DNA of 64,000 nucleotides from Rhodospirillaceae bacterium (GTDB lineage: Bacteria > Pseudomonadota > Alphaproteobacteria > Rhodospirillales > UBA2165), in the NCBI GenBank assembly GCA_038127535.1, contig JAYPHU010000011.1:33560-97559 (forward strand), written 5' to 3'. The notes below the pieces were generated by a model. It had not been told where the DNA came from and made no database searches. It saw only the letters and a program-made list of their open reading frames with translations. The translations under genes and the position numbers were made by a program. Each line of letters starts with the position of its first letter. Positions within the stretch are counted from its first letter, which is position 1. Below, piece by piece: positions 21,481-50,941 of this stretch.

Positions 21481-21864
21481 GTGTCTTTGGATATTTCACC
21501 GATGGTGCCCGCGGGGCGTCAATTGATCCAAAGCTACGGTGATGGCCAGTTTACCATAAGTGATATTGTCTATACCGGCCCGGTGATTGTCCTGCCGGGG
21601 GAGACCCGATCCTGGTCGCCGGCTGATCCGTCAAATTTTACCACAGATGATTTCAACCCCGTCCTCGCGCTGGAGGAGCCGGTCGACATATTTTTGTTGG
21701 GATGTGGCCAAACCGGTCAGTTCATTCATCCAGGCCTGCGAGATGCTCTGCGGGAGAGCGGGATCACCATTGAGGCCATGGATACTGGCGCCGCGTGCCG
21801 GACGTTCAACGTCTTGCTGAGCGAGGACCGCCGGGTCGCAGCGGCGCTTCTACCGGTTGAGTAA
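21481..21864 (+). CDS. Mth938-like domain protein (NDUFAF3-like)
   Basis: 'IQSYGDGQFTISDIVYTGPVIVLP' and 'LLGCGQTGQFIHPGLRDALRESGITIEAMDTGAACRTFNVL' are present. Confidence 0.75.
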   Translation: MSLDISPMVPAGRQLIQSYGDGQFTISDIVYTGPVIVLPGETRSWSPADPSNFTTDDFNPVLALEEPVDIFLLGCGQTGQFIHPGLRDALRESGITIEAMDTGAACRTFNVLLSEDRRVAAALLPVE

Positions 21865-21871
21865 TCCGGCC

Positions 21872-24004: not shown

Positions 24005-24011
24005 AGAGTTG

Positions 24012-25058: not shown

Positions 25059-25077
25059 AAACGGGCAAAACATCCAG

Positions 25078-26238: not shown

Positions 26239-26259
26239 AGGCGGCAAGGCCGGACCAAC

Positions 26260-29450: not shown

Positions 29451-29539
29451 AAGCGCACGGCGGTATTGGAGAGGACGGAAAAAAACTACCACGCCACGCA
29501 TCTTTTTACAGGTGCGCAATTTTATGGCAATGGAAGAGC

Positions 29540-31139: not shown

Positions 31140-31556
31140 CGGCGCGTTGGGTCGAGGCCGGCTCCTGGGTGCCGGTTTCTCAATCTTCTCGGTAAAGATA
31201 TTTTCACGCTGGACAGCACGCCGTCAGGGGCCTTTTCGGCGGCGGCGAGCCTGCGCGGCGGCGTCTGGTTTCTGACGGTTGTCGACGCTGCCGTCCGGCC
31301 GGTTATCTCTTTCCGGGTTCGCCGGGGAAGTGACCCAATGTCGATCCGCTTGGCGAATTCGTTCGAAGTGTTCCGTTGCGGTGCGGCCTCTCTCGACGGG
31401 GCCGACGCCACGGGCAGTGGGATGCGCGGGCGTTCCTCGAAACTCTCGGCGGCTCAAACGGATCACCTAACCGGGACGGATCAGCCATCGCCGATCCGAA
31501 CCGGGATGACCGGCACCGGCGTCGGACGCGCCAGGGGCAGCGGTTCGGGCAATTTA

Positions 31557-31844
31557 TCAGGTGAGGCATCCTGCTGACGCGTCGCGGGGGGCGGGCGGGG
31601 ACTTGGCCGCCTCGAGCCGCGCAGTTTCCTGGCTGACTTCTCGTTCCTCCGGATATTCATCGGGCCGTTCCTTCTTGCTGAAGAACTTGCCCAAACCGCT
31701 AACCATCATGCTCAGCAGGCCTCTTTCGTCCTCTTCGGTCTTCGCGGCTTCATTCGCCGGCTGAGCGTCCGGCATCGGCTTCGCCGGGGCCTTGGCTTCG
31801 GTAATTTCATGTGTTTCGAGCGGCGGCTCCTGATCTTCCATCAC
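31557..31844 (-). CDS. hypothetical acidic/Pro-rich protein (95 aa), possibly a fragment
   Basis: The ORF has a GTG-ATG start and is in the same frame as the ankyrin ORF upstream. It is low-complexity. Confidence 0.25.
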   Translation of the reverse strand: MMEDQEPPLETHEITEAKAPAKPMPDAQPANEAAKTEEDERGLLSMMVSGLGKFFSKKERPDEYPEEREVSQETARLEAAKSPPAPRDASAGCLT

Positions 31845-32375
31845 TGATCGGGCTGCGGCGTAGAACGGTTTTCGTTCGGGAACTGGAATTTATTGCCCAT
31901 CGGTTTCGACCCGGAGGTCCTGTCTTTGTTCCGCCGCAACCGGTAGTGCGGATACCTCGATGAACGGGTCACCCGGTCTGATCTTGCGGGTGGATTGAAT
32001 TTTCCCGTCCGGTCCGATGACAATAACGGTCGAGGATGCTTCCTGTGGCGCTGTTGGCGATGAGAGGTTCGCCTCAGCCGGTGCCGTATTTCTGCTTTGT
32101 GCGGCGGCCAGCGCCTGCGCAGCGGCAGCTAGCTTCTCTGCACTTCCTTCTTACCGTCTCATCTCCGCCGATTGGGCGATTGCTGCGGCCGCTTACGGCT
32201 CCCTTGCTCGTTGAGGCGGCTCCTCTGGCAAGGCTTTTGGGGCCGGCCGTGCAACGACAGGGACAGGTGCCTGAACCGCCGGCTGTACAGCTGGACGTTG
32301 ATCTCCAACCACCACCTCGGGTGCAGCCTCCGGGGAGGGCTAGTTGATCGTCGCGGTCACCGCCGGTACGGGCGT

Positions 32376-32768
32376 TCAGGCGGCGGCTTGGGTCCGGGTC
32401 TTTTGCTGCTGTTGCAGCTGTCTGGCCAAGATTAAATATTGCGCTACTTCGAAATAACCGCTGCTGATTGCCAGGTCGAACGGGGTCTGGCCCTTTGAAT
32501 TCCGCATTGAAACGCCCGCACCCGCATCAACGATGGAACGCACCGCATGCGGGTTGTTATTGCGGACAGCGGTAAACAGATGTCTCTGCAGGGCGGGATC
32601 GGTTTTCGCGGCGACCGGGATGCTGGCGCTTTGATCATGCACGATGAACAGCCCTGTCACCGGACCGGACAGCGCGAAGACCGCAGCGATTCCCGCCATG
32701 GCGCACACACCTCCAAATTGAGACGCAGGCGGGGAGACTTGCGCCGACAGTTTGCTTTCCCAGTTCAC
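32376..32768 (-). CDS. membrane-anchored ankyrin-repeat protein (130 aa)
   Basis: A TM segment 'GGVCAMAGIAAVFALSGPVTGLFIV' is followed by 'LFTAVRNNNPHAVRSIVDAGAGVSMRNSKGQTPFDLAISSGYFEVAQYLI', an ANK-repeat signature. Confidence 0.55.
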   Translation of the reverse strand: MNWESKLSAQVSPPASQFGGVCAMAGIAAVFALSGPVTGLFIVHDQSASIPVAAKTDPALQRHLFTAVRNNNPHAVRSIVDAGAGVSMRNSKGQTPFDLAISSGYFEVAQYLILARQLQQQQKTRTQAAA

Positions 32769-32937
32769 TCTGAATCTTGTCGTCAGCTTAAATTAAGCAA
32801 CTTCTGGAACAAGCCTGCCAGCAAACATGTCCTCCAACCCAGATGATGCCGCTTTTGCTTTGGCCTGTCGATACGCTCCGGTGGATCACGTTTACATAAT
32901 GAAAAATTGACGGGGGAAAACGGAATTTATCTGTGAA

Positions 32938-36904: not shown

Positions 36905-37377
36905 TTAGGGAACAAAGCTAGGATGACGCCTTAACGCATAAGATTCGCGACCCCGCACCAGCTCTAGCCTATAGTCCCGCGGTTATTCCAACATCATTCG
37001 ATGACAAGGTATAGTTCAATGACAAGCAAAAAACGATGCCGCAGAGGCGGCCTCTCCGTGGCGTCGGTTGCGTCCCCTGAGATTAGCCCGCAGATTAGAA
37101 CTATCCGGAATCCCTTAATTGCCGATGGGTTATATTCTGGTGAGAGGGTGTCCGCTTATGGCTAAACCCGGCTGATTTCAAGTCCGCTGTTTCACGGCAG
37201 TTCTGATGCCGAAAACGGTCTGTCTTCGGAGCAGCCTGCGGAGGCGGTGTTGACTCCGTCTCAATGCCCGCAGTACCTCGGCCCGACCGAGTGTGAATCC
37301 TTAATCCATTGACCGGTTTTCCGATTGGTGAGACCATTCCCGTAGCCCCAGTGACGGCGGCGGATAAGGAGGTCTCC

Positions 37378-38184
37378 ATGCGGTTCAATGCAATCCAACT
37401 CGGCGCACTCTCTCTATTCATGGCGGCCGGCATTTCGACGCAGGCGTCCGCCGTGCCGCAAATCCTAGGCCTCCTGGCCTCGGCTGAGCCGGCGAAGCTA
37501 ACCTGCACCGCTGGTGTTTGCGCGGCCGAGTTTTCCTCCTTCTGTCTTCAAGAGCATCGTAAGACGCCAAATCAGGGTACGGCCTATGTGCCGTCCAAGC
37601 AGACCCAGCTCACCGTCTCGGTGACTGATGCGGCCGGTGATGTCCACACCATGTCTGTGGCTGACAAAGTGACTGTCCGCAGCCTTCGGGGATACACCAC
37701 GGTGCAGATTTCCCTGCCGGCCGATCTGGTGGCGAGCCTCGGTAAGGGTAACGCGACTCTTTCCGTGGCGCCGTACGCCTCTCTGGTGCCTGCGTCCATG
37801 GCCGATACTGATGATCCGCGGCTACGCGAGGAAATCGTCCTCTACACCGGGCCCATGCGTAAGGTGGCGTCCGCCAGCAATGAACGGGAGCCGGTCAACG
37901 TGCAGGCGGCCCGGCTGATGAACAAAATGGTCAACGACCTGCCGGCGAAGTCCGATCTGTCTCAGACAGAGCGGGATGCTGTCTGGGAAAAGTCGGTGAA
38001 GAAGCATACGGGTAATGCTTCCACGCCGGCGTTGGCCAAAGCGGCGACGGCGTTCCGCAATTGCCGGGGCGACTACAATCGCTATGGCCTGAACGGCATG
38101 CGGGCCTGCATGGGGCATGAGCATGACCGCTCGATGATCGATGTGACCCGCAAAGTCTGGCAGGACCAGAAGGGCGGCAGCTAG
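37378..38184 (+). CDS. secreted hypothetical protein
   Basis: AAGGAGG SD, signal peptide 'MRFNAIQLGALSLFMAAGISTQASA' and several Cys residues. No recognised domain. Confidence 0.55.
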   Translation: MRFNAIQLGALSLFMAAGISTQASAVPQILGLLASAEPAKLTCTAGVCAAEFSSFCLQEHRKTPNQGTAYVPSKQTQLTVSVTDAAGDVHTMSVADKVTVRSLRGYTTVQISLPADLVASLGKGNATLSVAPYASLVPASMADTDDPRLREEIVLYTGPMRKVASASNEREPVNVQAARLMNKMVNDLPAKSDLSQTERDAVWEKSVKKHTGNASTPALAKAATAFRNCRGDYNRYGLNGMRACMGHEHDRSMIDVTRKVWQDQKGGS

Positions 38185-39302
38185 ACCTTCACGCCCATTT
38201 CGGCGACGACCTCTTTGACCGCGGCGACGGCGTTTCGCATGTCGTCCGCCGTAAGGTGGCCTATGCAGCCCATGCGGAAGCTGTCCGCCTTGGTCAGTTT
38301 GCCGGGGTAAATGGCGAAGCCTCTTTCTCGCAGCCGGTTGTAGAAATCCTCGAAGTCGAAGGTGTCATCTGCCGGCGGGTGGAACGTGATGATGATCGGC
38401 GCCTGCAGGTTGTCTGACAGATAAGTCCGAAAACCCAGCTTCCGCATGCCGCTGATCAGCGCCTCCGCGTTCTTCCGGTACCGTTCGCCGCGCCCCGCAA
38501 CGCCGCCCTCAATCTTGTGTTCCTTGAGCGCCTGGTCGAGTGCCGCCAGCACGTGTGTCGGCGGGGTGAAGCGCCATTGGCCCGAACTTTCCATGTAGGC
38601 CCACTGGTCATGGAGATCGAGGCTCAGGCTGCCGGCATTACCTTTGCACCCCTCCAGCACCGCTTTGTCGATAATGACAAAGCCGATGCCGGGCGCGCCC
38701 TCCAAGCATTTGTTCGAAGACGCGATCACCGCCGCACAATGCAGCGAGCCGAGGTCGAGGGGCAGGGCGCCGAAGGAGCTCATAGCGTCCACGATCAACA
38801 GCCGGTCCGCTGCTTTGCAGGCCTCGGCAATATCCGCCAGGGGATTGAGAATGCCCGAGGTGGTCTCACAGTGAACGGCGACCACGCGGGTTATATCGGG
38901 ATCAGCCGCCAGCTTTGCCGACAGATCGGAAACCGAGGGCGACGTGTCTTCGTCCGTCTCCAGCAACTCGGCGTCGCGGCCGTGATAGCCGCAAATCTTG
39001 ACGATCCGATGCCCGTAGGCGCCGTTGACCAGCACCAGCACTTTACCCTCCCGGGGCGCCAGGGTGGTGATCGCCGCCTCAACGGCGAACGTGCCGCTTC
39101 CTTGAATTGGCACGCAGGTGTGCGTCGGCTTGTCCGGATCGATCCCGGCAATCGCTTCGATGCTGCGGCGGACCCGTGCCGTCGTCTCGATGAAATCCGT
39201 ATCGCGGGAGCCCCAGTCCTTCAGCATGGCCTCCTTCACCGAGGCAGAGGTCGTCAACGGACCGGGGGTCAGGAGGAGGGGGGTGTCGGAATTTCGGGTC
39301 AT
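38181..39302 (-). CDS. phnW: 2-aminoethylphosphonate--pyruvate transaminase (PhnW-type class V aminotransferase)
   Basis: 'LLLTPGPLTTSASVKEAMLKDWGSRD', 'VAVHCETTSGILNP', 'IVDAMSSFG', 'SSNKCLEG' (PLP Lys), 'WRFTPPTH' and 'FAIYPGKLT...FRMGCIG' track PhnW closely. The start is at the ATG at 39302. Confidence 0.8.
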   Translation of the reverse strand: MTRNSDTPLLLTPGPLTTSASVKEAMLKDWGSRDTDFIETTARVRRSIEAIAGIDPDKPTHTCVPIQGSGTFAVEAAITTLAPREGKVLVLVNGAYGHRIVKICGYHGRDAELLETDEDTSPSVSDLSAKLAADPDITRVVAVHCETTSGILNPLADIAEACKAADRLLIVDAMSSFGALPLDLGSLHCAAVIASSNKCLEGAPGIGFVIIDKAVLEGCKGNAGSLSLDLHDQWAYMESSGQWRFTPPTHVLAALDQALKEHKIEGGVAGRGERYRKNAEALISGMRKLGFRTYLSDNLQAPIIITFHPPADDTFDFEDFYNRLRERGFAIYPGKLTKADSFRMGCIGHLTADDMRNAVAAVKEVVAEMGVKV

Positions 39303-39456
39303 CGGTAAACGCCGGGAATTAAGTGTTCTAAGTGAGCCGTCAATTAGATAAGTATAGGACCGGATCATATCACGTTGGGGGATATCCGCCATCAGTCACA
39401 ATACCTGGATTCACCGCATCGTCGCGGTCGGCGTCAAGCCGCTGGCGAGAACGCCG

Positions 39457-39987
39457 GTGCAGCCTAACCAGATTACCACGCTACGGCTTGTCGGCGGGAT
39501 CGCGGCGGCGTCTTTGTTTGCCGTTGGCGATCAGGCCATGACCTATTGGGGCTGCGGCGTGTTCGTCTTTGCCATGCTGCTCGACCGGGCGGATGGGATA
39601 CTGGCGCGGCTGACCGGGCGGACCTCTGACTGGGGGCATACGTACGACTTGATCTCTGATTCTATCTCGAATTCCGTGGCGTTTGTCGGCATCGGCATCG
39701 GCTTGCGGGACAGCGAGTTGGGCGGCTGGGCTATTCCGCTGGGTCTTGTGGCCGGAGTGGCGATTTCCGCCGTTCTTTGGCTGGTGATGAAGGCAGAAGA
39801 TCAAGCCGGCGGCAGCGCTGCTGAGCTGGATAGCGCCGCCGGCTTTGATGCGGATGACGCCATGCTGTTTGTGCCGCTCGCCATGGCGCTGGGTTGGAGG
39901 GTGGAGTTGATTGTCGCAGCCGCCGTCGGCGCGAGTCTGTTTAGCGTCTTTTTCTTTTGGAAGTTCCGGCGTTTTCTACGAGTCTGA
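39457..39987 (+). CDS. CDP-alcohol phosphatidyltransferase family protein (paralog 1); true start probably upstream of the annotated GTG
   Basis: The motif 'DRADGILARLTGRTSDWGHTYDLISD' (DGxxARx8Gx3Dx3D) is present. The open frame upstream (from 39358) encodes 'NTWIHRIVAVGVKPLARTP', homologous to the paralog N-termini. Confidence 0.7.
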   Translation: MQPNQITTLRLVGGIAAASLFAVGDQAMTYWGCGVFVFAMLLDRADGILARLTGRTSDWGHTYDLISDSISNSVAFVGIGIGLRDSELGGWAIPLGLVAGVAISAVLWLVMKAEDQAGGSAAELDSAAGFDADDAMLFVPLAMALGWRVELIVAAAVGASLFSVFFFWKFRRFLRV

Positions 39988-40596
39988 GTTACGCTGGCTC
40001 AGCACTAGCCAGTGTCCGATCGACCAGAGGCAGTAGATCGATGCGCCGATGCCGGCCGCGATGAAAAACGGGGTGATATAGCCCAGCCACGTGACCGGAG
40101 CGAGCAGGTATATCCCGTCTTCCAACTCAAATCCGGCGAAACCGGGATAGCCAATGGCCTCGCCGGAGTCGGCGGTGTCCAGTTCCTGGTCGATACCCAG
40201 GTTTGAGAATAGCGAAATCAATGCGGACGCCGCACCGGCGCCGCCCAGGACCAGCGCCCAAACGCCGAGGTCGGTTTGGTAGTGGCCGATTCCTAAGCCG
40301 GCAAAGAGGGCGGCGTATCCTATGCCTCCGACGGCGTAGTCATAGTAGTAGCCGAACTTGGAAGAACTTCCCTGCAGACGCGCCAGTTCCCCGTCAAAAT
40401 GATCCAGGAATCGGGAGAGAACAAAGATACCGGCGCCCCAATAGGCGAAGGCCGTCTCATTGAATGTGAACAATAAGCCACCGGCCAGCGCCATCAGCAG
40501 GGTTAGTGTCGTGATATGATTGGGCCGGACAAATGTGTGTTGTAGCGGGCGCACCAGCACCCGCGCCAATCGTTGGTCATAGGGCGGCGCGTTCAT
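39976..40596 (-). CDS. CDP-alcohol phosphatidyltransferase family protein (paralog 2)
   Basis: 'FLDHFDGELARLQGSSSKFGYYYDYAVGG' has the last Asp of the motif replaced by Gly. The protein is polytopic. Confidence 0.7.
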   Translation of the reverse strand: MNAPPYDQRLARVLVRPLQHTFVRPNHITTLTLLMALAGGLLFTFNETAFAYWGAGIFVLSRFLDHFDGELARLQGSSSKFGYYYDYAVGGIGYAALFAGLGIGHYQTDLGVWALVLGGAGAASALISLFSNLGIDQELDTADSGEAIGYPGFAGFELEDGIYLLAPVTWLGYITPFFIAAGIGASIYCLWSIGHWLVLSQRNSDS

Positions 40597-40792
40597 GGCC
40601 GCGCACAGTCATCGAGGACCGGCTTGCTGTCAAGCCGAAGCCATTAAACTAGGTTGGTTTGGGAGGAGCCGACACGACCAGGACGCGGACACAGCCGCAT
40701 CCCGCGGCGGTCGTTCATCATCAGAAGGAGACGGCGACCCCGGCCGTCAAGGCCAAGCCATCATTGTTGTTGGCGTCTGTCGTGGATTCGTC

Positions 40793-41848
40793 TTACCAGT
40801 CCACGAACATGAGGTTGCCGAGCAAATCGATACCGGGGCCCAGCGTGTAGGCGCCGCCCAGGAAAATCATCTGAACAGAATCTTCGCCCGGCGTCGCCGA
40901 AGCCAGTGGGGCTTCGCCATGCAAGTACGTGGCGCTGACCGTAAAGGGCCCTTGAGCATAGACAACCCCGATGTCGAAGGATTTCTGCTCCGGGCTGTTC
41001 GCGGTACCGGCGAGTCCGCTGTCGATCGCATCGAATACCCGATAGGAGCCACCGACAGAAACGGCGCCGAAACCGAGGTTTAGGCCGCCACGCCATCCGC
41101 TACGTGAATTGGCGGTGGTGCCGTGGTCTTCCATGTAACCGATATCAGCGCCAAGTTCGACGGAACCAATTTTGCCCGAATAGGCAATGGCGACGTTATA
41201 TTGCTGCGTATCGATGCCGCTATTGCCGCCGACCGCTGGTGGGGTGTTGGCGGTTGAACTCGACGGCTGGTAGGACGCCCCGATCGACAGACCAGAGATT
41301 GACGGCGAGATATAGACGACCCGCATCGTGTCGTTGGAGCCAAGTAAGGTGTCCGCCGTCGCGGTAACCGCCGTCGGCTGGACGATGACAAAGGTCGAGT
41401 CGCCATCATTCGGGACAATGGCGCCGGTCGCTGGCGCGATATTGCCGATTGCGCCGGACGCATTGACGGTTGATCCCAGTTTCAATGCACCGAACCCGCC
41501 GCTCATCTGAAGGAACGACTAGTTGATTTGGAAACCGATATTGGCCTGATCGAATTCAAGCTCAATGTGTACAGACGTGGTGATCCCGTTGGCCAAGGTC
41601 ACCGTGCCGGTGAAATGAATTTCGGTGTCATTCCATTGGTTAAAAGAATGGCAGCCAACCCGACTTGTGGCGTTGGAAGACGATTCGAAGCTTTCCTTCT
41701 GTTCGGAGAAGCCAACCGCAGCCATAAGCGATCCGCCGATGGAGAGTTTCATTGGTTGAGCCTTGTTTTGTGCAAGTGTTGGCTGGGACGACATGGCGAG
41801 AAGACCGGCGCCGGCCAGGATAGTGCTTAGATAGAGTTTGTTTTTCAT
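40793..41848 (-). pseudogene. outer-membrane porin (Gram-negative porin family) interrupted by an in-frame TAG (41519-41521)
   Basis: Signal peptide 'MKNKLYLSTILAGAGLLAMSSQPTLA'. ORFs 41519-41848 and 40793-41506 share a frame: '...ANIGFQIN*SFLQMSGGFGALKLGST...'. It has alternating beta-strand patterning and an aromatic C-terminus 'NLMFVDW'. Confidence 0.6.
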
Positions 41849-42074
41849 GTTGTTACCTCGATAAGTAATTCAATTTAGTTCCAAAACGACGCCATGCTTC
41901 ACGTGGTATAATATTTTTGCTCATAGATTAATCAAATTTTATTATGATTAGTTAGTACGCAAATAACTGATGTCTTCGTTCCTGTGGCAACAAAGTGACA
42001 CTTATGTTTGCCAACAAACCGCGATGATGTATGAGATTCCCAATACCCCGAGGCACATGAACCCTGTGGATAAC

Positions 42075-42097
42075 TTGCGTATATTTGCGTATGCAAA
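42075..42097. promoter_or_regulatory. direct repeat TTGCGTAT-N2-TTGCGTAT overlapping the inverted repeat TTTGC-N4-GCAAA in the divergent porin/MMPL control region
   Basis: Read directly as 'cTTGCGTATatTTGCGTATGCAAAttc'. The 10-bp phasing is typical of winged-helix regulator sites. Confidence 0.3.
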
Positions 42098-42326
42098 TTC
42101 AGCGATTTTTAAGTTTAACCGTCGGCCTATATCCAAGGAGGAAAATTTACCCTTAAATCAAGCGTTTATGGGGTTGCGCAGCATTGGAGGGAGGCATGAT
42201 GTAAATTTGGGCGTTTTGACCGGGATGCGGAAATACTTGCGAATCGCCGCCAAACCGGATGTTCTCCTGCGGTCAGGCGCACAAAGGCGCGCATGACGAA
42301 TTGAACGTGGCGGTTATGGTGACAGC

Positions 42327-44960
42327 GTGGACAAATCTCTGAATTTGCGCGAACCCGTTGCCCGCTGGATATCTGTGGTGTCCCGGCGAGCCCGCTTGGT
42401 CGTTATGTTGTCCGGACTGCTGACTGTGGCGCTGTCATTTTACATCGACACAAACCTCGGCATGAACACCGACACCTCGGATATGTTGTCGTCCGACCTG
42501 CCGTTCCGCCAAAATTCCATCGCTCTCAGCGAGGCGTTTCCACAGTTTTCGGACAATATCGTTGTCGTAGTGGACGGTGGCGACCCTGAAGCCGTGAATG
42601 CCGCCGCCGATCTATTGGCGTCCCGATTAAGGGCAAAGCCCGAGAGATTCGGCGAGGTTTTTGACCCAGCGGGAGAGGCGTTTTTCCGGGACAATGGTCT
42701 GCTGTATTTGGAGACGCCGGTGCTGGAGCGCCTGGTGGAGCAGCTCATCGATGCCCAGCCGTTTCTCGGCAAACTTTGGCGGCAGCCCGATCTCCCAACC
42801 TTGTTCCACTCTTTGGCGCAAATTGCCGACTACCTAGGGCGTGGCGGCAACGAGATGCCAGTCGAGGCCGCCGCCGGGTTCGTGGACGGGATAGCCGCCG
42901 CGATCGGGACCGCGGACGATCCGTCGGCGCCGCCGCTATCTTGGCAACAGCTCTTCACCGGCAACGCCGGGGATTTGACGCCGAGCCGGCGCATCATCCT
43001 GCTTCAGCCGAGAGCCGATTTTGACTCCCTGCAGCCGGGTTCCGAGGCCATGTCCGCAATCCGGTCCCTGGCGGTTGAGCTTCGCGTGAAAGAGGATTAC
43101 GACGTGCGGGTCCGGCTCACTGGTTCGCTTGCCTTGGCGGATGAGGAATTGGAGAGCGTGGCGGACGGATTGGGCCTTGCCGGCATTCTTTCCTTAATCC
43201 TTGTGTTCGGTCTGCTGATCATCGGGTTGCGCCGCTGGTCTGCCGTCGGCGCCTGCTTGATCACCTTGATCTGCGGGCTGATCTGGACTGCCGGGTTCGC
43301 CACCGCCGCCATCGGCACACTGAACCTGATTTCCGTCGCCTTTGCCGTGCTGTTCATTGGTCTGAGCGTGGACTTCGGCATCCATTTCACTCTCAGATAC
43401 ATTGAGCGGGAGGCGGACGCCCCCGATGTCCAGTCGGCTCTTCATGCCGCGGGGAAAGGGATCGGCAGCACCCTATCCTGGACGGCTGTCGCTGCGGCGA
43501 TTGGCTTTTTTTCCTTCCTGCCGACTAACTACCGTGGCTTGGCGGAATTGGGTTTGATCGCCGGCGCGGGCATGGTCATCGCACTATTCGCCAATCTCAC
43601 GCTGTTACCGGCCCTGTTGGCTTGGACGGCGCCCAAAGCCGTTTACCGTACGCCAAATCAATTTCCGGGATTGACGCCTCGTCCAATCGCTCATCGGATG
43701 TCCCTGGCTATTTTCACGGTGCTCGCTTTGGCTGCCGCTGCCATCTCGCCGCGGGTGGTATTTGATTTCGATCCCCTCAACCTGAAGGACCCTGAGACCG
43801 AGTCCGTTGGGACGCTTCTTGATCTTGTCGGCAGCGACGGGAATTCGCCCTATACCATTACCATCCTTGCCCGCGATCTATCGACGGCGCGGGAAACCTC
43901 CAATAGGCTAGAGGCCTTGGACTCCGTCAAACAAGTCCGAACAATCGCCGATCTCGTGCCGGAAAACCAAGAAGAGAAACTAGAGCTGATCTCGGACGCG
44001 TCCCTGATCCTGTTGCCCGCCATGTCCGGAAACATTGGCACGCCTTTAGGGAGTACGGCGCAAACAAACGCCGCCTATCGTGCTTTGGAGAGATCATTGG
44101 CGGCAGTCAGGGGCGGTGATCAGACGCCTTTGGATGTCGCGCTCGCGCGCCTGGCCGGCGCACTAAAATCCTATCGGGAAGCAACATCCCTCAGCGCCCC
44201 AGCGCTCCAACACCTCCAGCACAAAGTGATTGCGACCCTGCCGGAGAAATTGACAAGCCTTAGAAACGCCCTGACGCCCGCCGGCATTACCGTGGCGAAT
44301 TTGCCCAAGTCTCTGCGGGAACGGCTGGTTGCAGCCGATGGCCGGATCAAAATCGATGTGACGCCCAAAGGGAATATGCGTAATCAAGCAGGACTGTCGG
44401 CCTTCGTGACCGAGGTGCAATCTGTAGTGCCCTCAGCGACCGGTGCGCCGGTCGTGATTTACGAAGCGAGTAAGGTGGTCAAGCGAGCCTTTGGAGAGGC
44501 GGGACTGACGACCATTGTCCTGATTGCCGTGCTGGTCTTCTTGCTGACACGTAATGTCAGACAAATCGTTTTGATCTTTGCCCCCATCTTCGTCGCCGGG
44601 CTGCTGACCGTTGGCGCGACGGTTGTCCTGGATATCGCCTTCAACTTCGCCAATATCATTGTCCTGCCGCTTTTGTTCGGCCTGGGTGTTGCCGGGAGCA
44701 TTCACATGGTGCGCCGGGAACAGGCGCTAGGCCCGAAGGCGGACCTGTCGGAGACCAGTACCCCCCGCGCAGTTGTCTTTTCAGCTTTGACCACCATCGG
44801 CTCCTTCGGCAGCATCGCGCTCTCAAGTCACCCGGGCACGGCGAGCATGGGCGTTTTGCTGACAATCGCCATATTCTGCACATTGGCCGCGACGTTATTC
44901 CTGTTGCCTGCCCTTATGTACATTTGGCCGGCGCCAGACACAGAATTAGGTGAGGTTTGA
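42327..44960 (+). CDS. MMPL/RND-superfamily exporter (HpnN-like architecture)
   Basis: 877 aa in two 6-TM bundles, each preceded by a large periplasmic domain. 'FGLLIIGLRRW', 'LISVAFAVLFIGLSVDFGIHF' and 'IIVLPLLFGLGVAGSIHM' are present. Confidence 0.8.
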   Translation: MDKSLNLREPVARWISVVSRRARLVVMLSGLLTVALSFYIDTNLGMNTDTSDMLSSDLPFRQNSIALSEAFPQFSDNIVVVVDGGDPEAVNAAADLLASRLRAKPERFGEVFDPAGEAFFRDNGLLYLETPVLERLVEQLIDAQPFLGKLWRQPDLPTLFHSLAQIADYLGRGGNEMPVEAAAGFVDGIAAAIGTADDPSAPPLSWQQLFTGNAGDLTPSRRIILLQPRADFDSLQPGSEAMSAIRSLAVELRVKEDYDVRVRLTGSLALADEELESVADGLGLAGILSLILVFGLLIIGLRRWSAVGACLITLICGLIWTAGFATAAIGTLNLISVAFAVLFIGLSVDFGIHFTLRYIEREADAPDVQSALHAAGKGIGSTLSWTAVAAAIGFFSFLPTNYRGLAELGLIAGAGMVIALFANLTLLPALLAWTAPKAVYRTPNQFPGLTPRPIAHRMSLAIFTVLALAAAAISPRVVFDFDPLNLKDPETESVGTLLDLVGSDGNSPYTITILARDLSTARETSNRLEALDSVKQVRTIADLVPENQEEKLELISDASLILLPAMSGNIGTPLGSTAQTNAAYRALERSLAAVRGGDQTPLDVALARLAGALKSYREATSLSAPALQHLQHKVIATLPEKLTSLRNALTPAGITVANLPKSLRERLVAADGRIKIDVTPKGNMRNQAGLSAFVTEVQSVVPSATGAPVVIYEASKVVKRAFGEAGLTTIVLIAVLVFLLTRNVRQIVLIFAPIFVAGLLTVGATVVLDIAFNFANIIVLPLLFGLGVAGSIHMVRREQALGPKADLSETSTPRAVVFSALTTIGSFGSIALSSHPGTASMGVLLTIAIFCTLAATLFLLPALMYIWPAPDTELGEV

Positions 44961-45652
44961 TGCAGCCGCTCACTCAGCCGCCCCGGCCAGAATTCCTATT
45001 CCCCTTGATCCGTCACTTGTCCACGCGGGTGACGCGGTATCTTGCCGCCACTCCATTGTCGGCCAATCAGATCACCTTCATCTCACTCTTGTTTGGCCTG
45101 GCGTCGGCCGTGGTGTTTTCGTTTGGCGAGTACCACTGGGATCTTTGGGGCGGCATATTTCTGTTCGTCATGTATCTTCTGGACCATTGCGACGGAGAGG
45201 TGGCGCGAATCAAGGGACAGAACTCCCGCTCTGGGGCAATGTTTGACACGTTCGTGGATTGGATCACGCATGCGGCGATTTTCATCGGATTGGGGATGGG
45301 CTCCCAATTTGCGCTGGGGCATGATTGGATGAATGCGGCCGGCTGGATCGCGGCGGCGGGGGCGACGATCAACTACGGGATTGCGTTGTATGGAGATATT
45401 CAGAAGTTGAAGGCCGAGTCAGCGTCAGCGACGCAGGATACAGAACCGAGTGACAGTCCTGAACGGCCGGAAAATTGGAAAGAAGCCATCCTGTTCGCCT
45501 TTCGGGAATTGGCGCGGGCCGATTTCTGGCTGATCATTCTGGGCCTCTGCGTCGTTGATGTGGTTTGGTACATTCTGCCGTTCGTCGCCATTGGCGCCCA
45601 TGCTTACTGGATCGCCGCACTATTCACACGTCATAAAAACTACCGGGTCTGA
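44960..45652 (+). CDS. CDP-alcohol phosphatidyltransferase family protein (paralog 3)
   Basis: 'LLDHCDGEVARIKGQNSRSGAMFDTFVDW' is present. The ATG overlaps the MMPL stop (TGATG) with a GGTGAGG SD. Confidence 0.75.
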   Translation: MQPLTQPPRPEFLFPLIRHLSTRVTRYLAATPLSANQITFISLLFGLASAVVFSFGEYHWDLWGGIFLFVMYLLDHCDGEVARIKGQNSRSGAMFDTFVDWITHAAIFIGLGMGSQFALGHDWMNAAGWIAAAGATINYGIALYGDIQKLKAESASATQDTEPSDSPERPENWKEAILFAFRELARADFWLIILGLCVVDVVWYILPFVAIGAHAYWIAALFTRHKNYRV

Positions 45653-45663
45653 GTGGAATAAAC

Positions 45664-46674
45664 ATGCGTTGGCTCAAACTCATATTCCTGCTTCTTGGAC
45701 TGGCACTGCTTTGGGTCGTGGTGGCAGATAGCGATCTGGCCGTCGCCGCCGACTATGCCCGCCAAGTGGGATGGGGATTTGCCCTAGTGCTGGCCCTCTA
45801 TTTCGCTGCGTTTTTGGTCGATACGTTTACTTGGCAGCTCACCCTGCCGGCCTTACCCATATCGCCGAAATGGATCGTTCGGTTTTTTAATCTGCGGATG
45901 GCCGGTGAAGCGTTCAACAACATCACGCCGGCGGCCAGCATGGGCGGAGAGCCGGTAAAGGCCATTCTGTTGAAGACATACTATGGGGTGTCCTACCAAG
46001 ATGGGGTGGCGTCGCTGATCCTGGCCAGGACAATCAATGTTGTTGCGCTCATCGCGTTCTTGGCGATCGGTTTTGTCCTGATCCTCCAGGCGCCCTTTCT
46101 GACGCAGGAGTACAAATTGGTATCCGGCGTCGGTCTGGCTGCGTTCGCCACAGGCATCGTGCTTTTCTTTCTGGTGCAGCGGTTCCGGGTGACCTCGCAC
46201 GTAGGTAAGCTCTTTGGTCGGGACAGCGTTGCCGGCTGGATCACCAAGACCTTAACAGCAATTAGTGATGTGGAAGACCGGCTGGTTCATTTCTATCAGC
46301 AGCAGAAGACGCGGCTCTTGGCTGCGTTGGCTCTGGCTTTTGCCAATTGGGTCTCGGGCGCGGCGGAGGTCTATTACGTGATGGCGTTTCTCGGCAACCC
46401 GATATCCTGGACGGATGCCTGGATTATCGAGTCCATTGCGCAGCTTGTTCGCGCCGGAACGTTTTTCATTCCCGCCAGCATCGGTGCACAGGAAGGCGCC
46501 TTTGTCCTGGTCGGCGCGTCGATCACCGGCTCACCGGCCATGGGATTGGCCGTGGCAATTGTCCGCCGGCTCCGGGAAATCATCTGGATTGCCTGGGGGC
46601 TGGTGATTTTCTATGTGATGAAACCGGATATTGATCCGGCGTCGGGCACCGGCGAAGGGCCTAGTTCCCGCTAA
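45664..46674 (+). CDS. UPF0104 / lysylphosphatidylglycerol-synthase-TM-domain (flippase-like, HpnL-like) membrane protein
   Basis: About 8 TM segments. 'MAGEAFNNITPAASMGGEPVKAILL' and 'FFIPASIGAQEGAFVLV' are typical of the UPF0104 family. Confidence 0.65.
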   Translation: MRWLKLIFLLLGLALLWVVVADSDLAVAADYARQVGWGFALVLALYFAAFLVDTFTWQLTLPALPISPKWIVRFFNLRMAGEAFNNITPAASMGGEPVKAILLKTYYGVSYQDGVASLILARTINVVALIAFLAIGFVLILQAPFLTQEYKLVSGVGLAAFATGIVLFFLVQRFRVTSHVGKLFGRDSVAGWITKTLTAISDVEDRLVHFYQQQKTRLLAALALAFANWVSGAAEVYYVMAFLGNPISWTDAWIIESIAQLVRAGTFFIPASIGAQEGAFVLVGASITGSPAMGLAVAIVRRLREIIWIAWGLVIFYVMKPDIDPASGTGEGPSSR

Positions 46675-47260
46675 TCAATTGATCGGCTTTTTTGTTGAGG
46701 GCGGCGGCCAATCCGGCAGCTCCTTTGGAACGTAGCAGCGACCGGTATTCCGAGGCGCGGACGGCTAGCTCACTGATGTTGCCGTCCAGCAGCACATCAA
46801 TGATCCGCCAGTCATTCTCGAACTTCCGCAGCAGATAGTTCAGCTTTATCGGGCTGTCCCCGGGACTGGCAATATGAGTTTTGACCAATGTCGTATCTTG
46901 CGGGCCGGAGCCCTCGCCCAAAGTCTCGAACTTCTGGCCCGAATAGCCGTCAAACCGGAAGGCATAGGTACCGACACTGACCCGCTCGAACGCCTTGGAG
47001 AGTGCGGCCTGATCCTCTGCCGAATTTTTTTTCCAGCGAGAGCCGGCGATGATGCGGATCATTACAGGGAAGTTAAACGCGCCGGTGACCGGGGCTTCCA
47101 ATTTTGCATAGCGTTCCTTCACCGGGAGAGATTTAGCCTGCTTCATCACTTCGATCAGTGCATCATGGAAGGTTTCCACCGTGGCGCGTGGGGTGTTGCC
47201 GGCCGCGGCCGGCCGGGCAATGGCGATCAAGGCGATCAGCAATATAGTGGCGAAGCGCAT
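46661..47260 (-). CDS. MlaC/Ttg2D-family periplasmic lipid-binding protein (HpnM-like)
   Basis: A signal peptide is followed by '[13 protein letters not shown]', '[10 protein letters not shown]', '[13 protein letters not shown]' and '[22 protein letters not shown]', the MlaC-like pattern. Confidence 0.7.
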
Positions 47261-47394
47261 TAAGTCGGTCCTCCCTTTGGCAGGTCAGCATATCGGACCT
47301 GCCTATCGGGTCAATTGTTTCGGGCATGAGGATCGTCTATGACTATAGCGGAACAATGACGGTCGCTTTATTGGCGGCGAAGGAGATCAGGATC

Positions 47395-47853
47395 ATGGCG
47401 AAAGCAATGTTCGGCGCAGGATGTTTTTGGGGCGTGGAAGCGGCCTTCCGGCGGGTGGACGGGGTCACCGATGTGGCCGTCGGCTATTCCGGCGGGCAAA
47501 CGAAAAACCCCTCCTATGAAGAGGTTTGCAGCGGCCGAACCGGCCATACTGAGGTGGTGGAGGTTGATTTTGATCCGGACAAGGTCTCGTTCGAGACATT
47601 GCTTGACGTGTTTTGGGATATCCACGATCCAACCACGCTGAACCGTCAGGGCCCGGACATCGGGACACAATATCGCTCCGCCATCTATGTTTATGACGAT
47701 GCGCAGGCGGATCAGGCGCGGGCGTCGCTATTGAAAACCGACGAATCAGGCCGCTATCGGAATCCAATCGTGACCGAGATCACCGCCGCTAGTCCCTTCT
47801 ACCGCGGCGAGGAATACCACCAGCGCTACTTTGAGAAGCAAGGAAGACATTGA
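47395..47853 (+). CDS. msrA: peptide-methionine (S)-S-oxide reductase
   Basis: '[12 protein letters not shown]', 'GYSGG' and '[12 protein letters not shown]' are present, with an AAGGAG SD. Confidence 0.9.
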
Positions 47854-48033
47854 CTTATGTGGGGTGCGCCGCATCCCACCGGTAACCGTCATGCCCGAAC
47901 AAGCCGTCTTGGGCCGGTCAACGGACCGGCGTAACAGTCGCGTCCCGGGTAGCTATCCAGTTGTGCGCGCCGCTAGGCGCTTCGCGTATCCATTTTGTTT
48001 CCATCCTCACCCGCTTTGTCCGGGTGTCCCGCA

Positions 48034-48083
48034 CCCCCCCCCCACTCGCGGGGGAAGGTGGCCCGTAGGGCCGGATGGGGGGG
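48034..48083. terminator. GC-rich nested hairpin element between convergent msrA and uvrA (C10 ... GGCCC-GTA-GGGCC ... G7)
   Basis: Read directly. The C-run at 48034-48043 can pair with the G-run at 48077-48083, around a perfect 5-bp hairpin at 48060-48072. Confidence 0.3.
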
Positions 48084-48085
48084 CG

Positions 48086-50941
48086 CTACCCCGCTTTACG
48101 CTTTTTCTTTTTCTTCTTCTTGCCGAGGTAGGGCGCGAGGTATTGGCCGGTGAAGCTGTCGTCCACCTCGGCCACGTCTTCCGGCGTGCCGGCGGCGACC
48201 ACCCGGCCGCCCTTGTCGCCGCCTTCCGGGCCCATATCGATCAGCCAGTCGGCGGTCTTGATAACTTCCAGATTGTGCTCGATGACAATCACCGTGTTGC
48301 CCTGATCTACCAGCGCCTGCAGCACCTCGATCAGCTTTTTGACGTCCTCGAAGTGGAGGCCCGTGGTCGGTTCATCCAATATATAGAGGGTCTTGCCGGT
48401 AGCGCGGCGGGACAGTTCCTTGGCGAGCTTCACCCGTTGCGCCTCGCCGCCCGACAGAGTCGTCGCCTGCTGGCCGATATGGATATAGCCGAGGCCGACC
48501 CGGAACATGGTTTCCATCTTGTCCCGGATCACCGGTACCGCCTTGAAGAAATCCAGGCCTTCCTCGACGGTCATATCCAAGACGTCGGCGATAGACTTGC
48601 CGCGGAAGGTGATCTCCAGCGTTTCCCGGTTATAGCGCTTGCCCTTGCAGACATCACACTGGACATAGACGTCGGGCAGGAAGTGCATTTCGATTTTGAT
48701 GACGCCGTCGCCCTGACAGGCCTCACAGCGCCCGCCCTTCACGTTGAAGGAGAAGCGGCCCGGTTTATACCCCCGCGCTTTTGATTCCGGCAGGCCGGCG
48801 AACCAGTCGCGGATCGGGGTGAACGCGCCGGTATAGGTGGCGGGGTTGGAGCGCGGCGTGCGGCCGATGGGGGACTGGTCGATGTCCACCACCTTGTCCA
48901 GGAACTCCGTGCCTTCCAGCTTATCGTGCGCGCCGGGATGCACCCGGGTGCCGTTGAGCCGGCGGGCCAGCGCCTTATAAAGAGTCTCGATCACCAATGT
49001 GGATTTACCGCCGCCGGATACCCCGGTGATGCAGGTGAGGGTGCCCAAGGGGAAATCGACGTCCACATCCTGCAGATTGTTTTCGGACGCGCCTTTGACG
49101 GTGAGCTTATGGCCCTTGTGGCCGGAGCGACGGTCTTTCGGCACCTCGATCTGGCGGAAGCCGGTGAGGTATTGCCCGGTGAGACTTTCGCTGGCCTTCA
49201 TGATCTCTTGCGGCGTGCCGCAGGCGACGACCTGGCCGCCGTGGATGCCGGCGCCGGGGCCGATATCGACGATATAGTCGGCGGTGCTGATGGCTTCTTC
49301 GTCATGTTCCACGACGACCACCGAGTTGCCGAGATCGCGCAGCCGTTTGAGTGTCTCCAACAGCCGGCCGTTGTCCCGCTGGTGCAGGCCGATAGACGGT
49401 TCGTCGAGCACGTACAGCACGCCGGTGAGCCCCGAGCCGATCTGGGAGGCCAGGCGAATGCGCTGGCTTTCCCCGCCGGAGAGTGTCCGCGATGAGCGCG
49501 CCAGGGTCAGATACTCCAGGCCGACGTTTTTTAGGAAGCCTAAGCGCTCATTGATCTCGCGAAGAATCCGCCGGGCGATCTCGTTCTGCTTGTCGGTCAG
49601 ACGCTTGTCGAGGCCGGCGAACCAAGCCCCCACATCGTCGATGGACATGCGCGCGACCTTGCCGATATGGTGGTCGTCGATCTTCACCGCCAGGGCCTCG
49701 GGCTTGAGGCGGTATCCCTCACAGGCGTCGCAAGTGGTGGTGGTCTGGTATTTTGAAAGCTCGTCCCGGATCCAGCTTGAGTCCGTCTCCCGCCAGCGCC
49801 GTTCCATATTAGGCAGTACGCCCTCGAACGGTTTCTTCAGGTCATAGGACTGCTTGCCGTCGTCATAGCTCATCTTCACCGGCGTGTTGCCGGAGCCGTT
49901 GAGGATCGCGTCCTTGTGCTTTTTCTTGAGCTTGGTCCAGGGCGTCTTTAGATCAAACCCATAGTGATCGGCCAGGCTTTCCAAGGTTTGGCGATAGTAT
50001 TGTGAGCTCGACTCCGCCCATGGAGCGAGAGCCCCTTCGCCCAGGGAAAGCCGGTCGTCGGGCACCACCAGTTCCGGATCAAAGAACATCTGAGTGCCGA
50101 GCCCGTCGCAGGACGGGCAGGCGCCGAACGGGTTGTTGAAGGAAAACAGCCGGGGTTCGATCTCGTCGATGGTGAAGCCCGACACCGGGCACGCGAACTT
50201 GGCGGAGAACGTTACCCGGTCGCCGGAATCCGCATCCTCGGCAAAGGCCAGCCCGTTAGCCAGGTCCAGCGCCGTTTCGAAGCTATCGGCCAGGCGCTGT
50301 GCCAGGCCTTCGCGGACCACTAGGCGGTCCACCACCACTTCAATATCGTGCTTGAAATTCTTCTCGAGCGCCGGGGCCTCGTCGATCTCGTAATGCTCCC
50401 CGTCTACCTTGACCCGCTGGAAACCCTTCTTGGCCAGCTCCTGCAACTCTTTGCGGTATTCGCCCTTGCGACCGCGCACGATGGGGGCCAGCAGATAGAG
50501 CCGCGTGCCCTCGTCCATCTCCATCACTCGATCGACCATCTGCGACACGGTTTGCGCCTCGATGGGCCGGCCGGTTTCCGGGGAATAGGGGATGCCGATC
50601 CGCGCAAACATCAGCCGCATGTAATCGTATATCTCGGTGACCGTGCCGACCGTGGAGCGCGGGTTGCGGGACGTGGTTTTCTGCTCGATGGAAATGGCCG
50701 GCGACAGGCCTTCGATGGAATCCACGTCCGGCTTTTGCATCAGCTCCAGGAACTGGCGGGCATAGGCCGACAGGCTTTCCACATAGCGGCGCTGACCTTC
50801 CGCATAGATGGTATCGAACGCCAAAGACGACTTGCCGGAGCCCGACAGACCGGTGATCACGGTCAGGGACTCCCGGGGTATATCCACGTCGATATTCTTC
50901 AGATTGTGCTCTCGGGCACCGCGAACTTGGATGTCTGCCAT
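48086..50941 (-). CDS. uvrA: excinuclease ABC subunit A
   Basis: '[20 protein letters not shown]', '[23 protein letters not shown]', two ABC modules and zinc-finger Cys clusters are present. Confidence 0.97.

Follow-up and report, generated by a model that had tools for sequence, protein, structure and literature searches.

The DNA analyzed here is a 64,000 nt segment of the genome of a Rhodospirillaceae bacterium (referred to below as the window), corresponding to positions 33,560–97,559 of the forward strand of contig JAYPHU010000011.1 (GCA_038127535.1). At 38181–47260 (window numbering, used for all features below) it contains eight adjacent open reading frames (ORFs) on both strands, which an initial annotation identified as a 2-aminoethylphosphonate (AEP) transaminase (PhnW), three CDP-alcohol phosphotransferases (here CDP1, CDP2 and CDP3), a porin, and HpnN-, HpnL- and HpnM-like proteins. 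The ORF listing confirms all eight, and the family assignments hold in searches with Pfam and NCBIfam/TIGRFAM profiles, with scores judged against curated cutoffs. The porin gene is inactivated, and we think it reasonably likely that the seven live genes constitute one half of a hopanoid-linked AEP lipid pathway, that for attaching the head group and exporting the product, and that the gene cluster for this pathway has been split in this lineage.

The genes are organized with phnW and CDP1 divergent at the left end, followed by CDP2 and the porin gene (leftwards-transcribed), hpnN, CDP3 and hpnL (rightwards-transcribed), and hpnM (leftwards-transcribed). The overlaps reported initially are all real, including those of the convergent pairs CDP1 and CDP2 (39976–39987) and HpnL and HpnM (46661–46674), and the TGATG (44958–44962) shared by the hpnN stop codon and the start of CDP3.

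Conservation of the locus in related genomes

The comparison set consists of approximately 190 related loci (denoted by L-numbers), onto which the window proteins and those of a distant relative were mapped. Relatives of CDP3 are present in 182 species-level genomes, and the best 80 of these are all from uncultured organisms, mostly marine Rhodospirillales together with some Nitrospinota. The initial annotation offered co-occurrence of the gene set in related genomes as a test, and seven of the eight genes – all except the porin – are conserved in order in dozens of independent contigs at 40–88% amino acid identity, far above chance. Among 33 well-flanked loci in which HpnN precedes CDP3, 32 contain the MlaC-like gene, 31 contain CDP2, and 29 each contain CDP1 and HpnL; a PntC cytidylyltransferase and a PhyH-type oxygenase are each present in 22, and phosphonopyruvate decarboxylase (Ppd) in 21.

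In these relatives PhnW adjoins Ppd, a phosphoenolpyruvate (PEP) mutase fused to a cytidylyltransferase (Ppm::PntC), a second PntC and a PhyH/PhnY*-like hydroxylase. The order in L009, L011, L012, L024, L038 and L079 is PntC-PhyH-Ppm::PntC-Ppd-PhnW-CDP1-CDP2-HpnN-CDP3-HpnL-HpnM-MsrA, and among the matches listed in a metagenome scan with a Ppm::PntC fusion query (L090–L093, L096 and L110) the same block is extended leftwards by a glycosyltransferase (GT) gene and hopanoid genes. The full order, GT-HpnD-Shc-HpnG-HpnH-IspH-HpnA-PntC-PhyH-Ppm::PntC-Ppd-PhnW-CDP1-CDP2-HpnN-CDP3-HpnL-HpnM, is contiguous in several marine Rhodospirillales contigs. By this comparison the seven live genes of the window are the right-hand third of a ~20-kb supercluster predicted to join the making of hopanoids to that of AEP and its activated form, and these to the transfer of head groups and to export. 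Hopanoid synthesis genes are adjacent in L019, L037, L055, L057, L090–L096 and L110, and in Mycetohabitans, and a MlaA-like (HpnS-type) lipoprotein gene is present in relatives. L055 and L057 have a variant arrangement in which ispH, hpnA and hpnN have three CDP-alcohol phosphotransferase paralogs and a cytidylyltransferase interspersed among them, with no Ppm nearby.

All seven live genes have ratios of nonsynonymous to synonymous substitution rates (dN/dS) of 0.05–0.14 when compared with the sister lineage of the window (L005–L007), as expected of a functional locus, and these values rule out an inactive relic. No match to shc, hpnH, hpnG or hpnA was found in the window, and the only hopanoid-type genes in it outside the locus lie 8–10 kb upstream (28146–30412), where HpnE (hydroxysqualene dehydroxylase; 380 against a cutoff of 283) is divergent from a SQS_PSY protein scoring 70 against 279, well below both the HpnC and HpnD cutoffs. 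This divergent protein and HpnE, together with the HpnD of the probable second locus described below, may complete a three-gene squalene route.

PhnW and the probable division of the supercluster

PhnW (also AepZ; 38181–39302, leftwards-transcribed, 373 aa) is a predicted AEP:pyruvate transaminase scoring above cutoff with NF010006 (530 bits against 296), TIGR03301 (479 against 361) and the catabolic-type model TIGR02326 (477 against 401). Its closest solved structure is PDB 7E7G (E 1e-129, residues 6–371), and 1M32 is matched with E 8e-99. The translation start is conserved among orthologs (MTRNSDTPLLLTPGPLT), with an ATG nine codons before LLLTPGPLT, and on this basis ATG 39302 is most likely the start; the longer ORF up to 39392 is probably not used. 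The gene has a dN/dS of 0.09 relative to L005. The 88-bp region between the divergent PhnW and CDP1 genes (39303–39390) has no consensus sigma-70 match. A Shine-Dalgarno-like GGGGGA in it lies 8 nt ahead of the ATC at which CDP1 probably starts.

The proposal that the eight genes cover every step needed to build and move the lipid is not upheld, as the window lacks C–P bond formation and cytidylyl activation. The absence from it of PEP mutase, phosphonopyruvate decarboxylase and a cytidylyltransferase, which the initial annotation itself reported, is borne out by tblastn, with which no Ppm, Ppd, PntC, PhyH, HpnA, MlaA, Shc, HpnH or IspH was found in the window. A PhnW without neighboring Ppm and Ppd is found only in the window, its sister lineage, and L001.

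The other half of the cluster is present in the same samples. Contigs of the window population occur in five Joint Genome Institute (JGI) samples, and an exact-protein look-up places the Ppm::PntC protein P0155 in three of these five (3300064468, 3300063454 and 3300064344); it is this look-up that provides the link, contigs of the window's own samples being absent among the matches listed in the Ppm metagenome scan. Examples of left-half contigs are Ga0606705_000120 and Ga0606704_000604, and of right-half contigs Ga0606817_000022 and Ga0606704_000257. The P0155 locus (L175) has the order HpnD-Shc-HpnG-...-HpnH-IspH-HpnA-PntC-PhyH-Ppm::PntC-Ppd and ends exactly at Ppd; its PEP mutase, Ppd, Shc, HpnH, HpnA and HpnD genes score above their equivalog cutoffs. 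Beyond Ppd are citrate synthase, PrpB and PrpD, which are the genes following MsrA in L001 (84–85% identity). The tetranucleotide correlation of L175 with the window is 0.98, compared with 0.992 for a contig of the same population and 0.54–0.96 for more distant relatives. The sister lineage has the same left-half-only locus, encoding a protein (P0159) that is 91% identical to P0155 and sharing four samples with the sister right-half locus, and the two halves are diverged to a matching extent between window and sister (Ppm 91%, PhnW 89%, and CDP1 and CDP2 88% identity). The supercluster thus appears to have been split at the convergent Ppd/PhnW junction in an organism that very probably retains both halves, with the missing ppm, ppd and pntC probably located elsewhere in the same genome. 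The biosynthetic partners of PhnW are outside the window, but they adjoin it in orthologous loci and are present on co-occurring contigs of matching composition; because all seven genes of the split cluster are under strong purifying selection and its two halves co-occur, PhnW is most likely biosynthetic.

Several observations concern the junction itself. L001 and the window lineage are both broken there, but differently: L001 has kept PhnW...MsrA beside citrate synthase-PrpB-PrpD and lost the left half from the site, whereas the window lineage has kept the left half beside citrate synthase-PrpB-PrpD and the right half has moved beside uvrA. In the sister left-half loci (L181–L188) a 95-aa GIY-YIG nuclease-domain gene and a 172-aa gene of unknown function lie between Ppd and citrate synthase (at approximately 12778–13803); neither is present at this junction in L175, and the pair could be left over from the splitting of the cluster. 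In the window, the position occupied by Ppd in relatives, at the rearrangement breakpoint, is taken by a secreted, cysteine-containing protein of ~270 aa (37375–38184, within ORF 37309–38184), which overlaps the PhnW stop codon by 4 bp, has no Pfam or NCBIfam match, and is conserved only in the window lineage and its sister (87%). A PEP_mutase/ICL gene near L001 and L175 was considered as a phosphonate gene, but because it is beside PrpD and citrate synthase we read it as methylisocitrate lyase (PrpB).

Three CDP-alcohol phosphotransferases

CDP1 (39391–39987, rightwards-transcribed, 198 aa), CDP2 (39976–40596, leftwards-transcribed) and CDP3 (44960–45652, rightwards-transcribed, 230 aa) match PF01066 with 55, 44 and 53 bits, respectively (gathering cutoff 22 bits). 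As described initially, two have the full DGxxARx8Gx3Dx3D motif and one has glycine in place of the final aspartate: CDP1 (DRADGILARx8Gx3Dx3D) and CDP3 (DHCDGEVARx8Gx3Dx3D) have the complete eight-residue signature, and CDP2 (DHFDGELARx8Gx3Dx3G) lacks the fourth aspartate. These states are strictly maintained, with the complete signature in 38/38 CDP1 and 79/79 CDP3 orthologs, and the glycine in 42/42 CDP2 orthologs, with the other seven signature residues kept; close CDP2 variants have Gly, Ala or Thr at this position. The fourth aspartate is the proposed catalytic base (PMC4634129, PMC6506517), and a D93N substitution there nearly abolishes the activity of phosphatidylinositol-phosphate (PIP) synthase with substrate binding unimpaired (PMC4634129). 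Solved CDP-alcohol phosphotransferases are homodimers (PMC4634129, PMC6506517). CDP2 is probably a non-catalytic partner of CDP1, and we infer that the two form a heterodimer in which only one subunit is catalytic. The two genes are almost always adjacent, convergent and overlapping in related loci (by 12 bp in the window), and within the set purifying selection is strongest on CDP2 (dN/dS 0.05, with CDP1 at 0.07).

A distance tree resolves three clean orthogroups corresponding to CDP1, CDP2 and CDP3. The first of these also takes in the one transferase found in phosphonate clusters of the Burkholderia type, the CDP2 branch is its sister, and CDP3 forms a separate clade with Nitrospinota forms that are paired with HpnL and lack HpnN. 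The initial annotation regarded placement of the transferases in the PgsA, Pcs or PssA housekeeping families as an outcome that would refute a dedicated lipid pathway; all of the tested equivalog scores are far below cutoff, with values of ~22 against 109 for pgsA, 18–28 against 107 for pssA, 19–20 against 240 for ClsA, and 34–52 against 170 for PIP synthase. The nearest solved relatives of CDP3 are AF2299 (4O6M, E 6e-18) and IPCT-DIPPS (4MND, E 1e-9). Both AF2299 and DIPPS take soluble CDP-alcohol donors (PMC4634129), and PntC enzymes activate AEP as a cytidine monophosphate (CMP) conjugate, CMP-AEP (PMC6697681); since its closest solved relatives use soluble CDP-alcohol donors, CMP-AEP would fit as the donor for CDP3.

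The start of CDP1 is unusual. The first canonical start codon is GTG 39457, but the homology runs 22 codons upstream of this. At the aligned position, 18 of 37 loci have ATG, GTG or TTG, and 19 of 37 (including the window, L001, L005, L009, L011–L013, L017, L019, L024, L027, L028, L030, L038, L056 and L061) have ATC, ATT or ATA. The non-canonical starts are preceded by GGAG-like Shine-Dalgarno-like sites 7–12 nt upstream, and most of these loci have an in-frame stop 4–13 codons further upstream and no canonical in-frame start. Because of the upstream homology, the aligned start codons, the GGAG-like sites and the close upstream stops, CDP1 most likely begins at ATC 39391, which would be a conserved case of non-canonical initiation and could possibly keep the catalytic subunit at low or regulated levels. 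CDP3 begins at ATG 44960, within the TGATG overlap with the hpnN stop and just downstream of a GGTGAGG Shine-Dalgarno site, and is predicted to be translationally coupled to hpnN.

A simpler arrangement is seen in the Nitrospinota loci L052, L059, L068, L073, L074, L077, L082, L084 and L086, in which CDP3 and HpnL are followed by an NTP-transferase-like gene, with a second CDP-alcohol phosphotransferase of 413–417 aa on the opposite strand and neither HpnN nor Ppm. Such loci could represent an older, pared-down version of the CDP3-HpnL module.

The predicted lipid-export genes

The 877-aa HpnN-like protein (42327–44960, rightwards-transcribed) is a predicted RND/MMPL inner-membrane lipid exporter; along its full length (residues 13–864, E ~1e-130) it is similar to the solved HpnN of Burkholderia multivorans (5KHN and 6WU0). 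The 336-aa HpnL-like protein (45664–46674, rightwards-transcribed) belongs to the LPG_synthase_TM/flippase-like family (PF03706, 108 against 33; TIGR00374 flippase-like domain, 60 against 43), and its gene follows CDP3 in 36 of 48 well-flanked loci. The 199-aa HpnM (46661–47260, leftwards-transcribed) is a putative periplasmic MlaC-like lipid carrier with a signal-peptide-like N-terminus and a Pfam MlaC domain match of 119 bits. Testing of the initial assignments with equivalog profiles gives a mixed outcome: PhnW, HpnM (TIGR03481, 194 against 160) and HpnN with TIGR03480 (925 against 752) are above cutoff, whereas HpnL with TIGR03476 (173 against 195.65) and HpnN with the newer, stricter NF052374 (710 against 1100) fall below.

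HpnL is confined to hpnH-containing alphaproteobacteria (PMC12583986), and hpnL, hpnM and hpnA are described in the hopanoid literature as conserved genes of unknown function (PMC12583986; 10.1101/2025.07.29.667474). A route consisting of HpnN, HpnM and HpnS has been proposed for hopanoid transport, with no mention of phosphonates (10.1101/2025.07.29.667474). The Burkholderia phosphonate core discussed below contains an LPG-synthase-like gene (Burkholderia cenocepacia L087, 15448–16446; Mycetohabitans L088, 15442–16443), and because this scores 372 and 330, respectively, against the TIGR03476 cutoff of 196, it is the canonical HpnL. As it is a member of the core of a ppm cluster, more than 45 kb from any hopanoid gene in B. 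cenocepacia, the 'hopanoid-associated' name of HpnL may mislead.

A porin pseudogene and other features of the window

The initial annotation included the porin as the outer-membrane member of the system, but the gene (Porin_4; 40721–41848, leftwards-transcribed) has two in-frame stops and is found at this position only in the window lineage and its sister. The stops result from GAG to TAG (41519–41521) and GAA to TAA (40793–40795) changes, both G to T transversions converting glutamate codons; the Pfam match is split over two ORFs, and the canonical C-terminus (...AVSF) resumes in frame beyond the second stop. A 98.5%-identical strain (L170–L172) has the same gene with a 370-bp 5' deletion and a different stop, and an intact 403-aa ortholog is present only in L005–L007; no other related locus has a porin between CDP2 and hpnN. 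The remaining codons have a dN/dS of 0.06 relative to the intact ortholog, and this value together with the different lesions in the 98.5%-identical strain indicates that the inactivations are recent and independent; since contigs of the same population carry different lesions, the decay is real and ongoing. From its distribution the porin is a lineage-specific insertion outside the conserved system. An AT-rich intergenic region of 478 bp (41849–42326) lies upstream of both the porin gene and the hpnN operon and has no Rfam match. Two further ORFs, of 108 aa (41970–42296) and 162 aa (40595–41083), have no family match and are treated as non-genes.

With Rfam, no RNA element was identified either in the whole window (gathering thresholds) or, at E≤0.1, in 37000–48200. 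Two promoter-like sites, one facing the porin (41935–41908) and one near HpnM (47314–47287), compare with 4.6 expected from shuffled sequences and were not used; nor were terminator-like matches, which are mostly intragenic.

The remainder of the window encodes chromosomal housekeeping functions, including nagZ, scpAB, tatBC, serS, surE, pcm, secDF, trmFO, msrA, uvrA, gyrA and a tRNA-Lys. A group of genes following secDF (21857–26973), with a 715-aa TPR protein, two glycosyltransferases and a methyltransferase-domain fragment, has the appearance of a surface-polysaccharide locus. The ~1.8 kb between the SQS_PSY region and trmFO (31140–32937) contains only short ORFs of 91–130 aa; the only one of these scanned (31557–31844) has no family match, and Rfam finds nothing there at gathering threshold.

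Relationship to described systems

The closest described system is the 'Group 1 phosphonolipid' cluster (Yu et al. 2013), which corresponds to the 'Burkholderiales_CDP-OH' family of Li & Horsman (2022; PMC8942020). Its seven-gene core comprises an AEP transaminase, a CDP-alcohol transferase, an LPG-synthase-like gene, Ppm::PntC, Ppd, PntC and an oxygenase, and is the largest ppm neighborhood family in RefSeq, accounting for 36% of the neighborhoods analyzed (PMC8942020). We verified this core directly in B. cenocepacia and Mycetohabitans rhizoxinica. The view that no bacterial pathway of this kind has been described was thus too strong, as this published, uncharacterized core already combines an AEP transaminase with a CDP-alcohol transferase and a HpnL-like gene. 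The window resembles it in having AEP transaminase, CDP-alcohol transferase and HpnL-type genes together, homologous to the Burkholderia core genes, and the window's relatives also have Ppm::PntC, Ppd, the second PntC and the oxygenase. It differs in that the latter four are missing from the window, being found in relatives and in the probable second locus; in having three transferase paralogs, one always without the fourth aspartate, where Burkholderia has one with this residue intact; in the fusion of HpnN and HpnM genes into the operon structure; in its divergent HpnL subfamily (173 bits against 330–372 for the Burkholderia genes); and in the PhyH/PhnY*-like oxygenase of the marine loci. 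Mycetohabitans has its phosphonate core and hpnD-shc-...-hpnA-hpnH-ispH-hpnM-hpnN in one uninterrupted stretch, and in B. cenocepacia the two are apart, so the link between hopanoid and phosphonate genes is frequent but not universal; we had expected hopanoid adjacency to be general in Burkholderia, and narrowed the claim after B. cenocepacia.

The window shares with the HpnN/HpnM/HpnS system a full-length HpnN-like RND pump and a MlaC-like protein above the HpnM cutoff. The pump, however, is below the strict equivalog cutoff and its gene is coupled to that of a CDP-alcohol phosphotransferase, there is no MlaA-like gene in the window, and the literature on the system includes neither phosphonate nor CDP-alcohol genes. 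IPCT-DIPPS and AF2299 provide a parallel in which a cytidylyltransferase makes the donor and a membrane enzyme transfers it, and the PntC proteins of related loci match the IPCT domain best; in those systems, however, the transferase is fused to the cytidylyltransferase and uses soluble acceptors to make compatible solutes, whereas the genes considered here are separate, are in a lipid-export context, and presumably act on a lipid acceptor. In eukaryotic phosphonolipid synthesis, CMP-AEP and diacylglycerol are joined by an ethanolaminephosphotransferase-type enzyme. This belongs to the same superfamily and has the same proposed donor, but the eukaryotic enzymes are larger, with approximately ten helices, and have no hopanoid or RND export context. 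The 1-hydroxy-AEP sphingophosphonolipid of Bacteriovorax stolpii, cited in PMC8942020, is the only structurally characterized bacterial lipid with 1-hydroxy-AEP. It is anchored by ceramide; its cluster likewise encodes an AEP transaminase but belongs to another gene-cluster family and is not reported to contain an HpnN/L/M set. Terpenoid genes flank ppm in Acetobacteraceae, and a 'terpene-phosphonate' has been suggested in passing (PMC8776678). In the literature searched we found no paper that ties HpnN, HpnL or HpnM to phosphonates.

A proposed pathway and its alternatives

In the pathway that we propose, Ppm::PntC and Ppd of the other locus – which also encodes a PhnY*-like hydroxylase, a stand-alone PntC, Shc, HpnH, HpnG and HpnA – would make phosphonoacetaldehyde, and PhnW would convert this to AEP. 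The hydroxylase may add a 1-hydroxyl, and PntC would convert AEP or 1-hydroxy-AEP to its CMP conjugate. CDP1 would then move the phosphonyl head group from the conjugate to a hydroxyl of a membrane lipid, releasing CMP, and would probably act as a heterodimer with CDP2, in which the nucleotide- and metal-binding residues are kept and the catalytic base is gone. CDP3, which in this model is co-translated with HpnN and always paired with HpnL, could perform a second head-group transfer, either in parallel or sequentially. HpnL would flip the product across the inner membrane, HpnN would extract it, and HpnM would ferry it through the periplasm to the outer membrane. The dedicated lipid pathway of the initial annotation is therefore retained as a conserved unit tied to AEP biosynthesis and hopanoid-type export, but the porin is excluded from it and the window encodes half of it.

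The lipid acceptor could be diacylglycerol or an extended hopanoid. Precedent favors diacylglycerol; the gene context favors an extended hopanoid, because the transferases are found inside hopanoid clusters, hpnN and CDP3 are coupled, and HpnL is limited to hpnH-containing alphaproteobacteria. It is possible, although doubtful, that the acceptor is an extended hopanoid (bacteriohopanepolyol), such that a heterodimeric transferase with CDP2 in a lipid-handling role would form an AEP- or 1-hydroxy-AEP-hopanoid for export by HpnL, HpnN and HpnM. For bacteriohopanetetrol-AEP the calculated [M+H]+ is 654.4857, and for its 1-hydroxy form 670.4806.

Three other explanations have to be weighed. The co-located genes could serve separate pathways, with HpnN, HpnM and perhaps HpnL exporting ordinary hopanoids and the phosphonolipid being diacylglycerol-based, remaining in the inner membrane or taking another route; the genes would then cluster as envelope-lipid functions. 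HpnN is an established hopanoid transporter family to which the window protein is matched by 5KHN and 6WU0 along its whole length, the phosphonate core of B. cenocepacia is far from hpnN and other hopanoid genes, and to our knowledge all phosphonolipids so far described are glycerolipids or sphingolipids. The published HpnN/HpnM/HpnS model likewise operates without phosphonates (10.1101/2025.07.29.667474). Such a separation is nevertheless rather unlikely, given the predicted translational coupling of hpnN and CDP3, the retention of the HpnN-CDP3-HpnL order in 29–33 loci, the divergent position of CDP2 relative to hpnN wherever the porin is missing, and the interleaving of transferases and a cytidylyltransferase with ispH, hpnA and hpnN in L055.

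It would also be conceivable that the transferases handle no phosphonate, using instead CDP-diacylglycerol or another CDP-alcohol to form a phosphate-ester head group, with PhnW kept for some other reason. L055 and L057, in which a hopanoid cluster includes three paralogs and a cytidylyltransferase and the nearest 10 kb contain neither Ppm nor Ppd, and the Nitrospinota with CDP3 and HpnL in the absence of Ppm, could be read in this way, as could the best sub-threshold family matches, which are to inositol-phosphate-type synthases. We regard it as improbable, since Ppm or Ppd is within 10 kb in 21 of the 33 HpnN-linked loci, CDP1 falls in one group with the transferase from the seven-gene phosphonate core of Burkholderia, every housekeeping and inositol equivalog score is far below cutoff, and PhnW, which is the direct divergent neighbor of CDP1, is itself under purifying selection. 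The initial annotation held that PhnW could equally be catabolic, which would make it a scavenger of marine AEP that happens to lie beside an unrelated lipid locus. The lack of ppm and ppd in the window, the TIGR02326 score and the naming of the nearest solved relatives as AEP-pyruvate transaminases are compatible with this, but no phnX, phnA, phnY or AEP transporter gene is present among the NCBIfam-scanned ORFs of the 64 kb, the same divergent PhnW-CDP1 pair directly follows Ppd in orthologous loci (59–66% identity), and the left-half locus terminating at Ppd co-occurs with the window population; we consider a catabolic PhnW highly improbable.

The reading of the locus as half of a hopanoid-linked AEP lipid pathway has its own difficulties. 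The window itself contains no ppm, ppd, pntC or hydroxylase gene by tblastn, the evidence that places the left-half contig in this genome is circumstantial, and the PhnW sequence, being above cutoff with both TIGR02326 and TIGR03301, does not separate the catabolic from the biosynthetic direction. No cluster of the Group 1 type has a characterized product (PMC8942020), no hopanoid gene is present within ~45–65 kb on either side of the phosphonate core in B. cenocepacia, and none of the hopanoid literature searched mentions a hopanoid containing phosphorus; a lipid of the proposed type is not known to have been observed. Soluble acceptors are used by those small six-helix CDP-alcohol phosphotransferases that have been characterized (PMC4634129); for this architecture, pairing a soluble donor with a lipid acceptor would be new. 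HpnN, HpnM and HpnL may also export hopanoids only and be merely co-located.

Of the components of the locus, the core is already known as the predicted, uncharacterized Group 1 phosphonolipid cluster of Burkholderia; the three-paralog set, the paralog that always lacks the catalytic fourth aspartate, and the fused HpnN/L/M export module are new. Phosphonate genome mining and the hopanoid literature each describe parts of the system without connecting them. The comparisons reported here – a canonical HpnL in the phosphonate core, a contiguous cluster in marine Rhodospirillales, and a transferase paralog universally without its catalytic base – join two questions that can be tested together: what the Group 1 phosphonate clusters make, and what HpnL does. 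If the acceptor is a hopanoid, the product would represent a class of phosphorus-containing hopanoids unreported so far, HpnL would acquire a role, and the product of the commonest ppm neighborhood in sequenced bacteria would be identified. What the phosphonate is attached to bears on outer-membrane biology. Since Ppm::PntC proteins of this type abound, with at least 7,980 matching protein clusters at E≤1e-100, it may also bear on marine phosphorus cycling.

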